A stretch of 64,000 bases of DNA from Pyrinomonadaceae bacterium (GCA_035248785.1 DATFHD010000100.1:328-64327); one strand, 5' to 3'. Positions 24,952 through 33,977 are shown, numbered from the stretch's first letter. Numbers and translations are program-made. The notes: generated by a model not told the origin, from the letters alone.

Positions 24952-25275
24952 TTAGTTGTGGTTGTTCGTGTTGGCGCCGCGGTTGCTGTTGGCGCTGTTG
25001 GTGTTGGTGCCGGCGTTGGTGTTGCGGGTCATGTTGCCGTTCATGTTGCCCGCGTTGCTGTTGCCCGCGTTCATGTTACCGGCGTTGGTGTTGCCCGCGT
25101 TCGTGTTGCTGCCGGCATTCGAGTTGACGACGGTGATGTTGGCGTTGCCAACGGTCACATTGGCGTTGTTCGCGTTGGCGTTGCTGGCGTTCATGTTGTT
25201 GGTGTTGTCACCACCGCCACAGGCCGAAAGGCTCGCGACGCCGGCCAACGCCAGAAGTGCTAAAGTCTTGCGCAT
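24952..25275 (-). CDS. Asn-rich low-complexity lipoprotein
   Basis: MRKTLALLALAGVASLSAC (lipobox), followed by ~85 residues dominated by N, A, G and T (NAGSNTNAGNTNAGNMNAGNSNAGNMNGN...). A promoter-like TAGACA, 17 nt, TATAGT lies on the minus strand at 25353-25325. Confidence 0.7.
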   Translation of the reverse strand: MRKTLALLALAGVASLSACGGGDNTNNMNASNANANNANVTVGNANITVVNSNAGSNTNAGNTNAGNMNAGNSNAGNMNGNMTRNTNAGTNTNSANSNRGANTNNHN

Positions 25276-26319: not shown

Positions 26320-26377
26320 CATGATGACAGACTGTCTGTCCGAACGTCACATGATGACAGACTGTCTGTCCGGACGT
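26320..26377. promoter_or_regulatory. Two tandem 30-bp units, each containing the perfect palindrome GACAGAC-T-GTCTGTC (candidate operator pair)
   Basis: Palindromes at 26326-26340 and 26356-26370. The units CATGATGACAGACTGTCTGTCCGRACGT repeat with an exact 30-bp period, 31 nt upstream of the start at 26295. Confidence 0.6.
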
Positions 26378-28739: not shown

Positions 28740-28830
28740 TGGCGGAGATGGCAGGATTCGAACCTGCGATAGGCTTTTGACCTATAACGGTTTAGCAAAC
28801 CGCCGCCTTCAGCCACTCGGCCACATCTCC
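28740..28830 (-). tRNA. tRNA-Ser (anticodon GCU)
   Basis: Hand-folded: GGAGATG TG GCC GAGTGGCTGAA GGC G GCGGT TTGCTAA ACCGT, a long variable arm TATAGGTCAAAAGCCTATC, GCAGG TTCGAAT CCTGC CATCTCC G CCA. The CCA is encoded. Confidence 0.9.
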
Positions 28831-28988
28831 GCGAAGGCGAAGCCCTATTCTAGCCCGCGACCACCGATTGTCAAGCCGCGCCCCGGCCGTTTCCGCCCCG
28901 CGAAAACTTACGTATAACCCCGGCGCGGTTTGGTGATAAAGTTTGCGCGCACGGCCTCGGATTCCGCTTTGACAGGAGACGGCCTCAC

Positions 28989-31900
28989 ATGCCCGAAGCT
29001 TCCAGTAAACAGACCGTCGTCATGGTCAGCAGCACCGTGCTCGATCTGCCCGAGCACCGCAAAGAGGTGCGCGACGCCTGCCTGCGGATGGGGATGCTCC
29101 CCGTGATGATGGAGCACCTGACGGCCGGCGATACGGACGCGGCCGAGAAGTCGCTGGCGATGGTTGACGGCGCGGACATCTATCTGGGCGTCTTCGCCTA
29201 CCGCTACGGTTACGTGCCCGACGCGAACAACCCCGACCGAATCTCCATCACCGAGATGGAATACAACCGCGCCGTCGAGCGCGACATACCCCGCCTGATC
29301 TTCTTCATGGACAAGTCGCACACGCTCACTGCGGCCGACATGGAAGAGGACACGACCGACCCGGTCGAAATCGCGCGGCGTAAGGTGAAGCTGGCGGAGT
29401 TGAAAGAGCGCGCCGGCAAAAGGCGCGTCGTCGCCTCCTTCAGGTCGCCCGCCGACCTGCGCGCGCTCGTCATACAAGCCCTCGTCGAATTCCGCGTGCC
29501 AGACCTCACGACCTTCCACTACGTCAGCAACATCCCCGAGCCACCCGAGCCCTTCATCGCGCACCCCTACACGCTGCTGCAAACGCACCGCCTCGTCGGC
29601 CGTCAGCCAGAACTGAATCTGTTAACCGACTGGGTCGCCAAACCCGACTCTGGCGTTTACAAGGCGCGCATCCTCAACGTCGTCGCCATCGGCGGCATGG
29701 GCAAGAGCGCCCTGACGTGGAAGTGGTTCAACGACATCGCCCCGCAGGAGATGAAGCCGCTCGCCGGACGCATGTGGTGGAGCTTCTACGAGTCCGACGC
29801 CACCTTCGAGAACTTCGTCACCCGCGCCCTCGCCTACGTCACCCGCCGCCCTCTCGCCGAAGTCCAACAAATCCCCGCCCCCGACCGCGAGACGCAACTC
29901 CTCGCCGCCCTCGACCGCGAGCCCTTCCTCCTCGTCCTCGACGGCCTCGAACGCATCCTCATCGCCTACGCCCGCATGGACGCCGCGCATCTCAGCGACG
30001 ACGACTACGACAGGCAGACGGCGAACTTCGTCGCCAACGCCTACGGCCTGCCCGCGAGCGCCGCGCAGTCCTTCACCGGCGAGCACCGCCTACGCAAGAC
30101 CGCCGACCCGCGCGCCGGCTCCTTCCTCCGCAAACTCTCGAACGTCCGCGCCTCCCGCATCCTAGTCAGCACACGCCTCTACCCAGCCGACTTACAGACG
30201 GTGACGGGCGAATCGCTTGGCAATTGTGCCGCTGTCTTCCTGCCCGGGCTGTCCGATGACGACGCGCTCGAACTGTGGCGGGCGTTTGGTGTCACCGGCT
30301 CACGCGATACGTTGCTGCCGCTTTTCAATCTCGTCGGTAATCATCCTTTACTGGTCCAAGCGTTGGCGGGCGAGGTGGCGCGCTACCGGCCCGCGCCCGG
30401 CGACTTCGACGCGTGGCGGCGCGCTCATCCCGATTTTAACCCCTTCGGCCTGCCGCTCATTCAAGTAAGATCACACGTGCTGGCCTCTGCCCTGCACGGG
30501 CTCGGCGGCAAAGCGCACCAAGTGTTGCGCACCATCGCCGCCTTCAGGATGCCCGCACGCTACGACACGCTGGTCGCGTTGTTAATAGGTAACGGGAAGG
30601 CGTGCGCAGACGAGCGTGAGTTGGACGGGGTTCTAACCGAGTTGGAAGACCGGGGCTTGGTCGGCTGGGACAAGCGCGCCAACCGCTACGACCTGCACCC
30701 GCTCGTGCGCGGCGTGGTGTGGAGCGGCCTGAGCGACGACGCCCGGCGCGGCATCTATACGAGCCTGCACACACACTTTGAAGTGGTGCCGAAGATTGAC
30801 GATTTTCTCAAAGTCAATAACCTCGAAGACCTCACACCCGCTATCGAGCTATACAATACGCTGATTGGTTTGGGACGTTACTCCGACGCCGCGCTTCTTT
30901 TCCAAGGGAAATTAGACCAAGCCACGATTTGGCGCCTGAGCGCCAACCGCCAGCGGATAGAGTTGCTCGAAATGCTCTTCCCCGATGGATTAGAGCACCA
31001 GCCGCGGTTGAACCGCGGTGGGTTGCAAGCCTACGCGTACGGTGCGTTGGCAACCAGCTATACGTCGAGCGGACAACCTGGACGCGCCGCGGCCGTGCAC
31101 CGCCGCGCCAATGCTATTGACGCCGAGATCGGGCGGAGCATCAGCCTATGTACGGGACTGTATAACATGTCGTATGCCCTACGCTTGTCAGGCGCCCTGC
31201 GGGAGGCAGAATCTACTGCGCGGCAGGCGCTGATTATTTCGCGTGAGCAGGGTGATGTCGGTAGAGAAGCCAGCAGCCTCTACATGCTCGGGCTGGTGTT
31301 CGCCGCTCGCGGCATCTCTAAAGGGTCTGAGGCGGCGCTCAGTCGGGCGTTGAGGATATTCGTGACCTACTCCTTCAAACCAGGGATGGGATTTGTAAGC
31401 TCTTTCCTTTCACAAAGGGCATTATGGCTCGGAGCTTACATCGCTGCGATGACACTCGCCGACCGCGCTTGGGAACTGGCTCATGTCAGAGGCAATGAGC
31501 GTGATTTCATCTTCGCTTCACGGCGGCAGGGTGAGGCGGCGCTGGGCTTAAACGACTTAGTTAAAGCAGACGAGCGGCTGCATCATGCGCTCACCCGCGC
31601 GCGGATGGTGAATCTAGTTGAGGAAGAACTGCCCGCGCTGGTGGCGCTGGCGGAGTTGCGGCGGAGGCAGGGGGAGTTGGGGGCGGCGAGGGGGTTGTTA
31701 GAGGATGTGTGGGAGGCGGCGGAGCGGGGGCCGTATCCTTTGATTCATGCGGATGCGTGTTGTGTGTTGGCGGAGGTGGAGCGGGAGGAGGGCCGATACG
31801 ATAAAGCGGTTGAGCCGGCGGAGACGGCTTATAGGTTGGCGTGGTGTGATGGGCCGCCGTTTGCTTATCATTGGGGGTTGGAGAGGGCGCGGGCTCTGCT

Positions 31901-32033
31901 GAAAGAGTTGGGGGCGGGGGAGCCGGAGTTGCCGGCGTTTGATGCGTCGAAGTTTGAGCCGATGCCGGAGGTGGAGATTGACCCGGCGGACGAGTTCGGG
32001 GCGGGGAGTGTTGAAGGTGGTGGAGGAGGATAA
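28989..32033 (+). CDS. STAND NTPase: DUF4062-like N-terminal domain, NB-ARC ATPase, C-terminal TPR array
   Basis: N-terminus VVMVSSTVLDLPEHRKEVRDACLRMGMLPVMMEH...ADIYLGVFAYRYGYVP...ISITEMEYNRAVERDIPRLIFFM (DUF4062-type). P-loop VVAIGGMGKSALTWKW, Walker B FLLVLDGLERIL, RILVSTRLYP, LPGLSDDDALELW and GNHPLLVQALAG (NB-ARC order). About 400 aa of TPR-like helical repeats follow. Confidence 0.85.
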   Translation: MPEASSKQTVVMVSSTVLDLPEHRKEVRDACLRMGMLPVMMEHLTAGDTDAAEKSLAMVDGADIYLGVFAYRYGYVPDANNPDRISITEMEYNRAVERDIPRLIFFMDKSHTLTAADMEEDTTDPVEIARRKVKLAELKERAGKRRVVASFRSPADLRALVIQALVEFRVPDLTTFHYVSNIPEPPEPFIAHPYTLLQTHRLVGRQPELNLLTDWVAKPDSGVYKARILNVVAIGGMGKSALTWKWFNDIAPQEMKPLAGRMWWSFYESDATFENFVTRALAYVTRRPLAEVQQIPAPDRETQLLAALDREPFLLVLDGLERILIAYARMDAAHLSDDDYDRQTANFVANAYGLPASAAQSFTGEHRLRKTADPRAGSFLRKLSNVRASRILVSTRLYPADLQTVTGESLGNCAAVFLPGLSDDDALELWRAFGVTGSRDTLLPLFNLVGNHPLLVQALAGEVARYRPAPGDFDAWRRAHPDFNPFGLPLIQVRSHVLASALHGLGGKAHQVLRTIAAFRMPARYDTLVALLIGNGKACADERELDGVLTELEDRGLVGWDKRANRYDLHPLVRGVVWSGLSDDARRGIYTSLHTHFEVVPKIDDFLKVNNLEDLTPAIELYNTLIGLGRYSDAALLFQGKLDQATIWRLSANRQRIELLEMLFPDGLEHQPRLNRGGLQAYAYGALATSYTSSGQPGRAAAVHRRANAIDAEIGRSISLCTGLYNMSYALRLSGALREAESTARQALIISREQGDVGREASSLYMLGLVFAARGISKGSEAALSRALRIFVTYSFKPGMGFVSSFLSQRALWLGAYIAAMTLADRAWELAHVRGNERDFIFASRRQGEAALGLNDLVKADERLHHALTRARMVNLVEEELPALVALAELRRRQGELGAARGLLEDVWEAAERGPYPLIHADACCVLAEVEREEGRYDKAVEPAETAYRLAWCDGPPFAYHWGLERARALLKELGAGEPELPAFDASKFEPMPEVEIDPADEFGAGSVEGGGGG

Positions 32034-32076
32034 AGCTTAAGGGCTTCGTTAGAAGGCGGGAGCACTGTGTTGGGAA

Positions 32077-32928
32077 GTGGCGGAGGTTGAGTTGGGTCTG
32101 ACGAGGAGGGAGTTTTTGAGGGGGGCGGGGGCCGCGGCGTTGGTCGGGGCGGCGGGGGTGTCGGCGTATGGCGGGGTGGTGGAGGCTTGGGATTATGAGG
32201 TGACGGAGACGGCCGTGCCCGTGAAGGGTTTGCCGGAGAGGTTCGAGGGGTTTCGGATCGTGCAGGTGTCGGACGTGCATCACGGGCGGCTGGTGTCGCT
32301 TGATGAAGTCCGGCGGGTGGTGAGTTTGGCGAACGCGGCGCGTGCGGACATGGTGGCGCTGACGGGCGATTACACGACCTCTTACAGGGAGTACATAGAG
32401 CCCTGCGCGGAGGCGCTCGGCGAGTTGAATGCGCCGGAAGGCGTGTGGGCCGTGCTCGGGAATCACGACCACAACACGGACGCGGCTCTGACGCGGCAGG
32501 CTTTGAAGCGGCGCGGGGTAGAGGTGCTGACGAACGCGAACACGACCTTGAGGCGCGGGGCGGACGTGTTGCAGTTGGCGGGCGTGGACGATTGGGGCTG
32601 GGGCGTCGCCGACTACGAGAAGGCCCTGCGCGGGGTGGACGTGTCGCGGCCTTCGGTGCTGCTCGCGCACGAGCCGCGCGCGCTCGACGAGCCCGAGACG
32701 CGCGGCGTCTCGCTCATCCTCAGCGGGCACACGCACGGCGGGCAGGTCAGGCTGCCGTTTGTCGGCGCGCCCGCGGCCTACGTCTTCAAGCACCTGAACT
32801 ATCTGCGCGGGATGTATGAGAACAACGGCACGCGGCTCTACGTCTCGCGCGGGACGGGGATGATAGGCGTGCCCGTGCGCGTCGGCGCGCGGCCCGAGGT
32901 CGCGGTGCTTCGTCTGCAAAAGGCTTAA
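32077..32928 (+). CDS. Tat-signal metallophosphoesterase (YkuE-like)
   Basis: LTRREFLRGAGAAAL (twin-arginine), VQVSDVHHG, ALTGDY, LGNHDH, SGHTHGGQV. Confidence 0.85.
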   Translation: MAEVELGLTRREFLRGAGAAALVGAAGVSAYGGVVEAWDYEVTETAVPVKGLPERFEGFRIVQVSDVHHGRLVSLDEVRRVVSLANAARADMVALTGDYTTSYREYIEPCAEALGELNAPEGVWAVLGNHDHNTDAALTRQALKRRGVEVLTNANTTLRRGADVLQLAGVDDWGWGVADYEKALRGVDVSRPSVLLAHEPRALDEPETRGVSLILSGHTHGGQVRLPFVGAPAAYVFKHLNYLRGMYENNGTRLYVSRGTGMIGVPVRVGARPEVAVLRLQKA

Positions 32929-32930
32929 CA

Positions 32931-33001
32931 GAAACAATGAACGATGAACGATGAACGATGAACTGAAGGCATGAAGCTTTCAGTTCATCATTCATTGTTT
33001 C
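32931..33001. repeat. Heptad-repeat hairpin (GAACGAT repeats) between convergent genes
   Basis: GAAACAATGAACGATGAACGATGAACGATGAACTGAA / loop / TTCAGTTCATCATTCATTGTTTC. The left arm has two more heptads than the right. Confidence 0.9.
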
Positions 33002-33977
33002 AAACGCGGCGTAGTGTCATCACGGTCAGGTCGTCGTGGCGCGGGGCGCCGGCGCGGAAGTCTTTGAGGTCGCCGAGGCAGGCTTCGATCAGTTCCGCGG
33101 GCGCGAGCAGGTGACGTTGGCAGAGGAGGCGTCGGAGGCGTTCGGCGCCGTACTCCGTGCCCAGCGGGTCGCGCGATTCGGAGAGGCCGTCGGTGAAGAG
33201 GAAGAGCGTGTCGCCGGCTTCAGTCCGGAACTTCTCGGAGGTGAACTCTTCGTTGCAGAAGATGCCGACGGGCAGGCCCGTCGCCTCGATAAGACGCGCC
33301 TCGCCTCCCCGCAGGAGCAGCGGCGGCAGATGTCCCGCGTTGCAGATTTCGACGAAGCCCTCTGTGTCGGCGCGGCCGAGGACGAGCGTGGCGTAGTGTG
33401 TGGGGAGCGTGCTCCCGTTGAAGACGCGGCTGGCGCGCTCGACCAAGCGGTTGAGCGCGAGCCCCTCGGGGACGAGCGCGCGGAACATCGCGTGAAGCTG
33501 CGACATCAGCAGAGACGCCGCCACGCCCTTGCCCGCCACGTCGCCGAGCATGAAGTAGAGGCTTCCGTCCTCCGCCGTCAGGAAGTCGCAGTAGTCGCCC
33601 GAGACTACCGACGCCGCCTCGTAATGGTAAGAGACCTGCCAGCCGTCGTGCCGGAAGTCGCGGCGCGGCAGGAGCCCCGCCTGAATCCGCGCCGCCAGTT
33701 CTAAATCGTCTTCGAGCGCGCGCCGCTGTGCCGGCGAAAGGCAGCCCAGACAGACGCACGTCAGAGGGTCGGCCAGAAGCCTCTCGGCCTCGACCGGGTC
33801 TTCGCAAATCTGGCAGAGCCCGAACGTCTCTTCCTCCATGCGCGCGAGCGCGGCGTCCACCTCTTCGAGCAGGCGTTGGAACTGCGCCTCGTTGTCCGCG
33901 CGATGGTAAGCCTCTTCCAGCCTGTGCCTGCGCACGAGGAGTTGTTCGCGCATCGTCGCGTCTATCACCGTGGCCAT
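33000..33977 (-). CDS. PP2C/SpoIIE-family serine phosphatase with an N-terminal DksA/TraR-type coiled-coil and C4 zinc finger
   Basis: CQIC-x17-CLGC (DksA/TraR spacing) after a helical N-terminus. Then VSGDYCDF...FMLGDVAGKGVAASLLMSQL...FLFTDGLSE...DDLTVMTL (SpoIIE/PP2C). Confidence 0.8.
   Translation of the reverse strand: MATVIDATMREQLLVRRHRLEEAYHRADNEAQFQRLLEEVDAALARMEEETFGLCQICEDPVEAERLLADPLTCVCLGCLSPAQRRALEDDLELAARIQAGLLPRRDFRHDGWQVSYHYEAASVVSGDYCDFLTAEDGSLYFMLGDVAGKGVAASLLMSQLHAMFRALVPEGLALNRLVERASRVFNGSTLPTHYATLVLGRADTEGFVEICNAGHLPPLLLRGGEARLIEATGLPVGIFCNEEFTSEKFRTEAGDTLFLFTDGLSESRDPLGTEYGAERLRRLLCQRHLLAPAELIEACLGDLKDFRAGAPRHDDLTVMTLRRV

Follow-up and report, generated by a model that had tools for sequence, protein, structure and literature searches.

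A probable stand-alone NLR-like sensor with a NIR/DUF4062 head in a Pyrinomonadaceae bacterium

What is the role of a single 1014-residue, multi-domain protein whose gene lies beside tRNA-Ser(GCU) in the genome of a Pyrinomonadaceae bacterium (Acidobacteriota)? The stretch of DNA analysed here, referred to as the window, covers 64,000 nucleotides (GCA_035248785.1, DATFHD010000100.1:328-64327). An initial annotation, made from the bare sequence, had taken the gene for a single-gene innate-immune sensor composed of an effector, a STAND NTPase and a repeat domain. Our analysis of its domains, folds, relatives and loci suggests that the protein is probably a stand-alone, NLR-like abortive-infection sensor with a NIR NADase head. 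It is a further member of the recently described NIR-armed, NLR-like class and not a new kind of system. The new elements are the patchy distribution of full-length relatives (45-82% identity), the lack of a conserved neighbour, the swapped heads, the shuffled NIR domain, the hypervariable tetratricopeptide repeat (TPR) helices 4-11 and the variable tRNA-Ser site.

The list of open reading frames (ORFs) and ARAGORN confirmed the 1014-residue frame and its distance of 158 nt from the tRNA. The gene starts with ATG, with a Shine-Dalgarno-like AGGAGA ~12 nt upstream of the start, and its product is identical to database entry P0001, which NCBI names DUF4062 domain-containing protein (Pyrinomonadaceae bacterium, metagenome-assembled genome (MAG)). 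Of the 8000 candidates scored, more than 1700 are database relatives at E <= 0.001; the 120 best clusters align over 89-100% of the query with 68-100% identity. Because of this number of relatives and these long, high-identity matches, a chance ORF is ruled out. The tripartite order of effector, STAND NTPase and repeats holds in Pfam, in AlphaFold2 (AF2) models and in Foldseek searches; the parts are listed in Table 1. Conservation is reported for an alignment of 83 homologues (T.aln), unless the separate 125-row alignment (A1) is named.

The N-terminal head gives the clearest indication of what the protein would do once activated. The Pfam model DUF4062 (PF13271) matches residues 11-95 significantly (E = 4.4e-20; 72.1 bits against a cutoff of 24.7), which bears out the DUF4062-like N-terminus proposed earlier. 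The best solved-structure relative is the DUF4062 domain of KpSwz (10wc_A), with an E value of 1.2e-7 for the single sequence and of 2.2e-20 for a 125-sequence family profile. In the AF2 model, five strand-helix units occupy residues 10-168 (strands 10-13, 37-39, 64-69, 102-107 and 148-151), mostly with a predicted local distance difference test score (pLDDT) >85, and the head as modelled has the five-stranded parallel β/α fold of TIR-like domains. The initial annotation regarded the chemistry of this domain as not established, a statement that is now out of date. In three 2026 preprints, DUF4062 was renamed NIR and described as a TIR-like NADase that produces ADP-ribose and nicotinamide, depends on a catalytic Glu and acts as an antiphage effector (10.64898/2026.05.01.722283; 10.64898/2026.06.25.731849; 10.64898/2026.09.04.749371).

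The corresponding glutamate is present in the window protein. In the alignment, E89 falls on the Glu of the SFTE motif in KpSwz (chain index 82; with a construct that begins at residue 16, this would be E97), and position 89 is E in 96% of the homologues. A Q is found at this position in loci L017 (gene from 1813) and L071 (gene from 9938), and L028 (gene from 9998) carries E91Q; judged by their sequences, these copies may be inactive or decoy versions. By homology with other NIR members, the head is predicted to hydrolyse NAD+ into ADP-ribose plus nicotinamide. It is joined to the NTPase by a conserved linker, in which H177, I182, P183, P186, A191, H192, P193, Y194, L196 and L197 are >=97% identical.

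The central module carries, in order, GGMGKSA at residue 235, LLVLDGLE at 314, ILVSTR at 391 (VSTR at 393), GNHPLL at 450 and RYDLHP at 566, with LPGLS at 418, and all of the motifs quoted in the initial annotation are present. We take the first five to be the P-loop, kinase-2, RNBS-B, GLPL and MHD motifs; from the motif order, RYDLHP presumably provides the counterpart of the MHD histidine of NB-ARC proteins. G235, G236, G238, K239, S240 and A241 of the P-loop are invariant, as are D318 and G319 of the Walker B motif, and E321 is >=97% identical in the same alignment and invariant in A1. Likewise, P453, L454, L459 and A460 of the GLPL-like motif and N565, R566, Y567, D568, L569, H570 and P571 around the MHD-like motif are >=97% identical. 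A family-specific insert of 46 residues follows the Walker B motif. It is the sole internal low-confidence stretch of the AF2 model (pLDDT 31-34), and its residues A326, Y327, R329, D331, A332, D337 and R369 are nearly invariant across phyla.

Fold comparison places this module among the NB-ARC-like switches. The AF2 model of residues 1-640 (pLDDT 84.6; predicted template-modelling score (pTM) 0.82) has the STAND protein PH0952 (PDB 6mfv) as its best Foldseek match (E = 5e-12), and the other top matches, with probability 1.00, are tomato NRC2 and NRC4, RPP1, Apaf-1, CED-4 and ZAR1. The E values for RPP1, NRC2/4, ZAR1 and Apaf-1 range from 1e-10 to 1e-8 at a sequence identity of only 12-16%, and Avs4, NLRP2 and Avs3 rank 28th, 29th and 34th. 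Resting forms fit closely, with 6.5 Å over 465 columns for Apaf-1 (3sfz, 1z6t) and 6.1 Å for resting NRC2 (8rfh). The query template-modelling score (TMq) is 0.40-0.42 at a root-mean-square deviation (rmsd) of 6-7 Å against the resting forms, and the resistosome forms lie at ~20 Å. Because the rmsd is low only to resting forms, the AF2 model depicts the closed state.

The name given to this module requires some care. The Pfam NB-ARC hidden Markov model (HMM; PF00931) scores below threshold for the window protein (10.7 bits against 23.5; E = 0.31), and AAA_16 is also under its cutoff (24.4 against 32.6). NB-ARC is above cutoff in the relative P0310 (25.9 bits), and precomputed PF00931 matches exist for several Bacteroidota homologues. 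A PDB sequence-profile search gave no match for the NTPase part, which is classified by fold search only. We call the module NB-ARC-like on the strength of its motifs, relatives and fold, despite the failure of its own HMM; the NB-ARC assignment made earlier stands on the former three and falls short on the latter.

The C-terminal half is a TPR superhelix. TPR_12 is above its Pfam cutoff (36 against 30.1), TPR_MalT is under its cutoff, and AF2 resolves 18 helices with high confidence (pLDDT 95.6; pTM 0.93), in agreement with the TPR-like repeats noted at the outset. Foldseek relates this part to LGN/Pins (5e-10), APC5, MalT domain III (TMq 0.56) and Rap, and no Avs protein is among its top 50 matches. 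NCBIfam gives weak matches to the TPR region only (AfsR, E = 8e-7), and a PDB profile matches AfsR there at 4e-9. The mean column entropy per helix is 1.7-2.1 bits in helices 4-11 and 0.7-1.2 in helices 12-18. The former are a candidate specificity region; the latter are strongly conserved across phyla, together with the acidic C-terminal tail. The tail consensus FDxSKFEPMPEVEIDPxDEF is nearly invariant across phyla and is modelled as a non-helical coil at pLDDT ~97. This confident coil model suggests that the tail packs on the TPR domain, possibly as an intramolecular ligand docked on the superhelix.

Relatives of the protein are numerous and unevenly spread. Beyond the self-match, the 120 listed clusters share 68-82% identity, and every organism given for them belongs to the Pyrinomonadaceae or Acidobacteriota. 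A scan of species-representative genomes yielded 135 relatives, of which 80 were kept (45-78% identity; 76 near full-length and 4 cut by contig ends). Full-length relatives with 45-65% identity come from Chloroflexota, Bacteroidota, Verrucomicrobiota, Planctomycetota, Gemmatimonadota, Ignavibacteriota, Calditrichia and Proteobacteria MAGs, and this patchy cross-phylum spread is best explained by horizontal transfer. Some genomes hold two or more copies or a tandem pair. For example, a complete 5.7-Mb Pyrinomonadaceae chromosome carries tandem members of 999 and 992 aa with a 46-aa ORF between them (L001 8001-14308, the same place as L038). Searched with residues 1-600, a 50%-identity cluster library returned 992 clusters at E <= 1e-30 and >150 at E <= 1e-100.

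The modules of the protein have been exchanged during its evolution. The NTPase-TPR chassis (48-58% identity over residues ~180-599) bears CHAT, PNP_UDP_1, Trypsin_2 or extra AAA heads elsewhere, and further relatives have added HEAT, AAA_35 or HATPase_c_4 modules. Long extensions precede the NIR domain in P0122, P0276, P0099 and P0202 (HATPase_c_4, AAA_35 or ~600 residues with no Pfam match), and P0122 seems to have two DUF4062 stretches. Compared with the window protein, the NTPase is 82-91% identical throughout the family, TPR residues 601-850 are 33-61% identical, and the NIR domain is bimodal, with one type at 78-82% that has an 8-residue insert and another at 52-64%. The NIR types do not follow synteny group. 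Even the closest relative falls from 90% identity over residues 1-640 to 68% over residues 600-1014. Such a mosaic pattern is expected of conflict-system NLRs. Because of this mosaicism, seen in the module-wise identities, a neighbour-joining tree of the 83 homologues is star-like, with context groups intermixed and orthologues not separable from paralogues. Synonymous sites are saturated at ~75% protein identity, which makes the ratio of nonsynonymous to synonymous rates (dN/dS) unsuitable here.

Base composition also differs between the two halves of the gene. The lower GC that had been noticed around 30200-31600 is real but modest (0.606 against a window mean of 0.657; 6.6th percentile of equal-length windows). 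It arises because GC at third codon positions (GC3) steps down into the TPR half, from 0.85-0.92 over most of codons 1-600 (0.70 for codons 401-500) to 0.64-0.73. The GC3 of the N-terminal part matches that of adjacent genes. The drop is present in 66 of the 83 homologues (mean 0.095, up to 0.27), L005, L007, L014 and L060 among others. Because it spans both variable and conserved TPR parts, fast evolution alone is insufficient to account for it. We also observed a very strong GC skew (+0.40) at 31500-32500, reaching from the last part of the gene into the first part of the downstream phosphoesterase gene.

Does the gene act with a partner, and is its place in the chromosome fixed? Clustering of 1250 neighbour ORFs from 84 loci gave only lineage-level synteny groups (>=7), and a conserved operon partner was therefore rejected; no neighbour is conserved across ~80 homologous loci, and the gene is a single-gene unit as first annotated. 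In the group to which the window belongs, the order gltX - (YetF) - tRNA-Ser - gene - phosphoesterase recurs in about 14 genomes. The tRNA adjacency itself is confirmed, and its interpretation as an integration signal is not. The two genes are divergent, with the 5' end of the tRNA toward the sensor gene; positions 20000-42000 contain no tRNA repeat, no att-like repeats were found, and no integrase was seen among the neighbours scanned. The same divergent tRNA is present in 14 genome loci, 13 of the gltX synteny group and the short contig L020, and other contexts have no adjacent tRNA, except L031 (tRNA-Leu). With no repeats, the wrong orientation and an adjacency confined to one synteny group, tRNA-targeted integration was rejected. 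The adjacency is lineage synteny rather than an integration scar.

To sample the site independently of the gene, metagenome contigs were searched for the tRNA sequence, and the flanking genes of the 38 contigs obtained were examined. The sensor gene lies next to the tRNA in 9 of them, and in 8 the site is empty, with the phosphoesterase gene within 200-400 nt. Other contigs carry an ECF sigma/anti-sigma pair (4/38), a Zn-dependent dehydrogenase (Zn-ADH; 3/38), AAA_15/AAA_21 ATPase cargo (3/38), ArsR-like or GNAT genes directly (3/38) or unknown ORFs (2/38), and 6 of the 38 are uninformative. In L090 (3933-5719), an AAA_21/AAA_15 ATPase and a DUF4276 protein form a complete HEC-01 candidate defence pair (PADLOC E = 5e-62 for HEC-01A and 4e-12 for HEC-01B), with a DUF446 ORF beside it. 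A different AAA_15 ATPase occupies this site in L104 and L121. From the configurations of the 38 contigs and the HEC-01 pair, we conclude that the gene is accessory and that its site is variable and can hold defence-type cargo as well. Together with effector swapping and patchy spread, presence and absence at this locus agree with a conflict-type gene.

Taken together, the initial annotation is partly supported: it is right in outline, its statement on chemistry is dated, and it used both "NB-ARC" and the tRNA adjacency loosely. In the mechanism that we propose, the NB-ARC-like NTPase of the resting protein would be closed, in an ADP-like form, and the NIR/DUF4062 domains would be held apart. 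A foreign protein, most likely a phage protein, would bind the TPR superhelix, with specificity probably residing in hypervariable helices 4-11. Binding would release the switch, and nucleotide exchange at the P-loop and Walker B motif would drive oligomerisation. The resulting loss of NAD+ would halt the infected cell and, with it, the phage. Of this scheme, the domain identities, the conserved NTPase and predicted catalytic residues and the closed NB-ARC-like fold come from the present analysis. That NIR domains, among them the one of PsAvs2, act as NADases and against phage is taken from the literature, and a phage trigger, oligomerisation and a defence role of the family are inferred from homology and genomics.

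Several observations weigh against an immune role. The TPR fold is as close to MalT and Rap, which sense endogenous ligands, as to any phage sensor. PADLOC-DB 2.0 (2023) gave no match at E <= 1, including to its Avs1-5 and bNACHT models; hence the protein is no Avs1-5 or bNACHT member as modelled there. No full-length homologue was found in sequenced plasmid or phage collections, and plasmid matches are limited to the NIR part, in Staphylococcus and Legionella records. The neighbours in the window are housekeeping genes (gltX, YetF, phosphoesterase, PP2C, GNAT, methyltransferase), and neither defence nor mobile genes were seen among those scanned. A PADLOC scan of 137 neighbour ORFs (one of three batches) returned few defence-type matches (TIR/ThsB-like, mad2/3, DrmC, TnpB/Cas12f-like), and, as there was no control set, no enrichment is claimed. 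In the gltX group, identity to the window copy (57-78%) roughly tracks that of gltX (70-79%), which indicates long vertical persistence, unlike rapid turnover. Such long-lived synteny, with a divergence similar to that of gltX in one lineage, would also suit a non-immune switch of NAD+ and physiology, in which an endogenous peptide or metabolite would be sensed by the TPR domain and the protein would then lower NAD+ for dormancy or stress, as a domesticated NLR like TEP1 or NWD1. The housekeeping neighbours, the proximity of the TPR fold to MalT domain III and Rap, and the strong conservation of the NTPase, the C-terminal TPR part and the tail across phyla could be read in the same way, as could the existence of eukaryotic NIR-NLR proteins with no proven immune role (2026 preprints). 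We nevertheless consider such a switch improbable. Close relatives differ in whether they carry the gene at this site, where alternative cargo includes a candidate defence pair; the same chassis bears CHAT, PNP or trypsin-like domains in place of the NIR head; the spread of the gene across phyla is patchy; its NIR alleles are shuffled and its TPR repeats hypervariable. Moreover, all bacterial NIR proteins tested to date function in defence (2026 preprints).

The calcineurin-like phosphoesterase gene (32077-32928), which lies on the same strand 43 nt downstream with no terminator-like site found after the stop codon of the sensor gene, raises the question of a two-gene system comparable to Vesta (NIR and alkaline phosphatase) or Metis. 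The pair recurs in 10 genome loci in addition to the window, and a pairing of NIR with a phosphatase is known in Vesta (10.64898/2026.09.04.749371). Such a system is highly unlikely here, as each gene also occurs on its own: the phosphoesterase gene stands beside the tRNA with no sensor gene in >=8 related contigs, and the sensor gene has no phosphoesterase in >=6 other contexts. In addition, a twin-arginine-like signal (LTRREFLK) at its start suggests that the phosphoesterase is exported, and its gene is an independent resident. A reading as a STAND transcription regulator (AfsR/SARP or MalT type) is effectively refuted. The weak AfsR matches and the sub-cutoff TPR_MalT hit are confined to the TPR repeats, the N-terminus is an enzyme domain, and neither Pfam nor NCBIfam detects a DNA-binding domain (BTAD/Trans_reg_C, LuxR HTH); the homologues are embedded in no conserved target operon, and the AfsR-like regulatory operons that the initial annotation had held up as contrary evidence are likewise not seen. 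It is equally hard to credit that the gene is a decayed or catalytically dead relic with a NIR domain that merely serves as a scaffold. The natural E89Q and E91Q variants do exist, but the glutamates are retained in 96-98% of homologues, and the window copy keeps E89, E91, Y92, all NTPase motifs and an intact ORF. The preferred reading therefore remains that of an abortive-infection sensor.

A more far-reaching version of the immune reading, which we find doubtful but worth stating, is that soil bacteria have in this gene a long-lived chromosomal NLR locus, which evolves in the manner of an allelic series of plant NLRs. Such a locus would combine a near-constant switch, two recombining NIR types, four hypervariable TPR repeats and a sensor half with low GC3 in most homologues, and its tail would dock on the TPR domain as a pseudo-ligand to be displaced by the trigger. 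If true, bacteria would have a counterpart of the plant TIR-NB-ARC logic that differs from Avs proteins and has an autoinhibition mechanism of its own.

The abortive-infection reading is of interest in its own right. It was not until 2026 that NIR was identified as an immune effector that degrades NAD+, and tests cover one NIR-STAND-TPR protein, PsAvs2. The NIR-NLR family is large and abundant in uncultured soil phyla, and was missed by PADLOC-DB 2.0. It offers a series of swapped heads on one chassis, a defined hypervariable sensor patch and a chromosomal site that is either occupied or empty. Therefore, it could be a convenient model for target choice and NADase restraint in bacterial NB-ARC-type NLRs. 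The main value of our results is that they extend defence annotation into Acidobacteriota and define testable parts of the protein, namely E89, K239, H570 and the tail.

Table 1. Coordinates in the window of the gene, its predicted modules and the adjoining elements.
Feature	Coordinates	Strand	Basis
tRNA-Ser(GCU), resident neighbour at one edge of the variable site, outside the system	28740..28830	-	ARAGORN
Intergenic motif GTTTGGTGATAAAGTT, possible promoter element	28928..28943	+	read by eye
Whole gene, NIR(DUF4062)-STAND-TPR protein, 1014 aa	28989..32033	+	ORF list and translation
NIR/DUF4062 TIR-like domain, residues ~9-170, predicted NADase effector	29013..29498	+	Pfam PF13271, PDB match, AF2
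E89 codon, predicted catalytic glutamate, motif SITEMEY	29253..29255	+	alignment to KpSwz SFTE
Conserved linker FHYVSxIPxPPEPFIAHPYTLLQT, residues 171-200	29499..29588	+	alignment of 83 homologues
NB-ARC-like STAND NTPase (nucleotide-binding, helical and winged-helix parts), residues ~201-600	29589..30788	+	AF2, Foldseek, motifs
P-loop / Walker A GGMGKSA, residues 235-241	29691..29711	+	conservation
Walker B / kinase-2 LLVLDGLE, residues 314-321	29928..29951	+	conservation
Family-specific insert after Walker B, residues 326-371	29964..30101	+	conservation, low pLDDT
GLPL-like motif GNHPLLVQALAG, residues 450-461	30336..30371	+	sequence
MHD-like motif RYDLHP, residues 566-571, winged-helix part	30684..30701	+	conservation
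TPR superhelix, 18 helices (~9 hairpins), residues 612-973, predicted sensor	30822..31907	+	AF2, Foldseek, Pfam
Hypervariable TPR helices 4-11, residues 677-834, candidate specificity region	31017..31490	+	column entropy
Acidic C-terminal tail (...ELPAFDASKFEPMPEVEIDPADEF), residues 974-1003	31908..31997	+	conservation, AF2

Some further features of the region were noted in passing. By eye, motifs like the intergenic element in Table 1 can also be read ahead of the phosphoesterase gene in four empty sites (L088, L089, L092 and L102). Between gltX and a SnoaL-like gene, at 26320-26377, two adjacent 28-nt copies (CATGATGACAGACTGTCTGTCCGAACGT, 96% identical) contain the palindrome GACAGACTGTCTGTC, an arrangement that looks operator-like. 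The stretch with the lowest GC in the region (0.554) holds 15-nt periodic repeats (GTTGxTGTTGCCxGC-like; 24999-25112). In the ORF at 33000-33977, on the minus strand, a DksA/TraR-type zinc finger (below the Pfam cutoff) is accompanied by a SpoIIE/PP2C phosphatase domain.

Comparison with known systems places the protein between several groups of STAND proteins and NIR effectors. The transcription factor MalT contains a LuxR-type DNA-binding domain, and a domain of this type is absent from the window protein in Pfam and NCBIfam. PH0952, a STAND-TPR protein of Pyrococcus and the best fold match of residues 1-640, and MalT, whose domain III resembles the TPR part, both lack an enzymatic effector head, unlike the window protein. 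Eukaryotic NIR-NLR-like proteins (TEP1, NWD1/2, NPHP3, TTC41) place NIR N-terminal to a STAND NTPase with repeats, as here, and the repeats of NPHP3 and TTC41 are, to judge by the names, probably TPRs. The 2026 preprints assign these eukaryotic proteins NACHT-type NTPases, whereas the window protein fits NB-ARC structures better. With an NTPase nearer to NB-ARC than to NACHT structures, a link to NPHP3 and TTC41 is unsupported.

The plant TIR-NLRs (RPP1) and Apaf-1/CED-4 have the same motif order from P-loop to MHD and a matching fold. The window protein shares the logic of plant TIR-NLRs, in which a TIR-like NADase head is combined with an NB-ARC switch and a repeat sensor. However, its head is NIR and not a canonical TIR, and its sensor is built of TPR and not of LRR or WD40 repeats. 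The conserved 46-residue insert after its Walker B motif may be a further difference. Like an Avs protein, the window protein joins an effector, a STAND NTPase and a C-terminal repeat sensor within a single polypeptide. Yet it has no PADLOC Avs match, its NTPase fold is nearer to Apaf-1 and plant NLRs than to Avs3 and Avs4, and its TPR part resembles LGN and MalT, not an Avs sensor, among solved structures.

The nearest counterparts are found among the NIR antiphage systems: Swarozyc (KpSwz), which is activated by phage portal and has the catalytic residue E97 (10.64898/2026.05.01.722283), Evangelion (10.64898/2026.06.25.731849), and PsAvs2, Vulcan and Vesta (10.64898/2026.09.04.749371). NADase activity and Glu-dependent defence were demonstrated for all five in these preprints. 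Swarozyc, Evangelion, Vulcan and Vesta share with the window protein a homologous NIR domain, and the Glu-dependent NADase chemistry that is predicted for the latter, but have no STAND NTPase; instead, they use a helical stalk (AUX), HEAT repeats, small ligand-binding domains or a phosphatase partner. PsAvs2 of Pseudomonas chlororaphis (WP_273864396.1) is a NIR-STAND-TPR protein, for which toxicity on co-expression suggests phage terminase as the activator (10.64898/2026.09.04.749371). Compared by description, PsAvs2 and the window protein are each encoded by a single gene with an N-terminal NIR, a central STAND and a C-terminal TPR domain, the glutamate being E108 in the former and E89 in the latter. 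The same logic, from sensing through oligomerisation to NAD+ depletion, would be expected of both.

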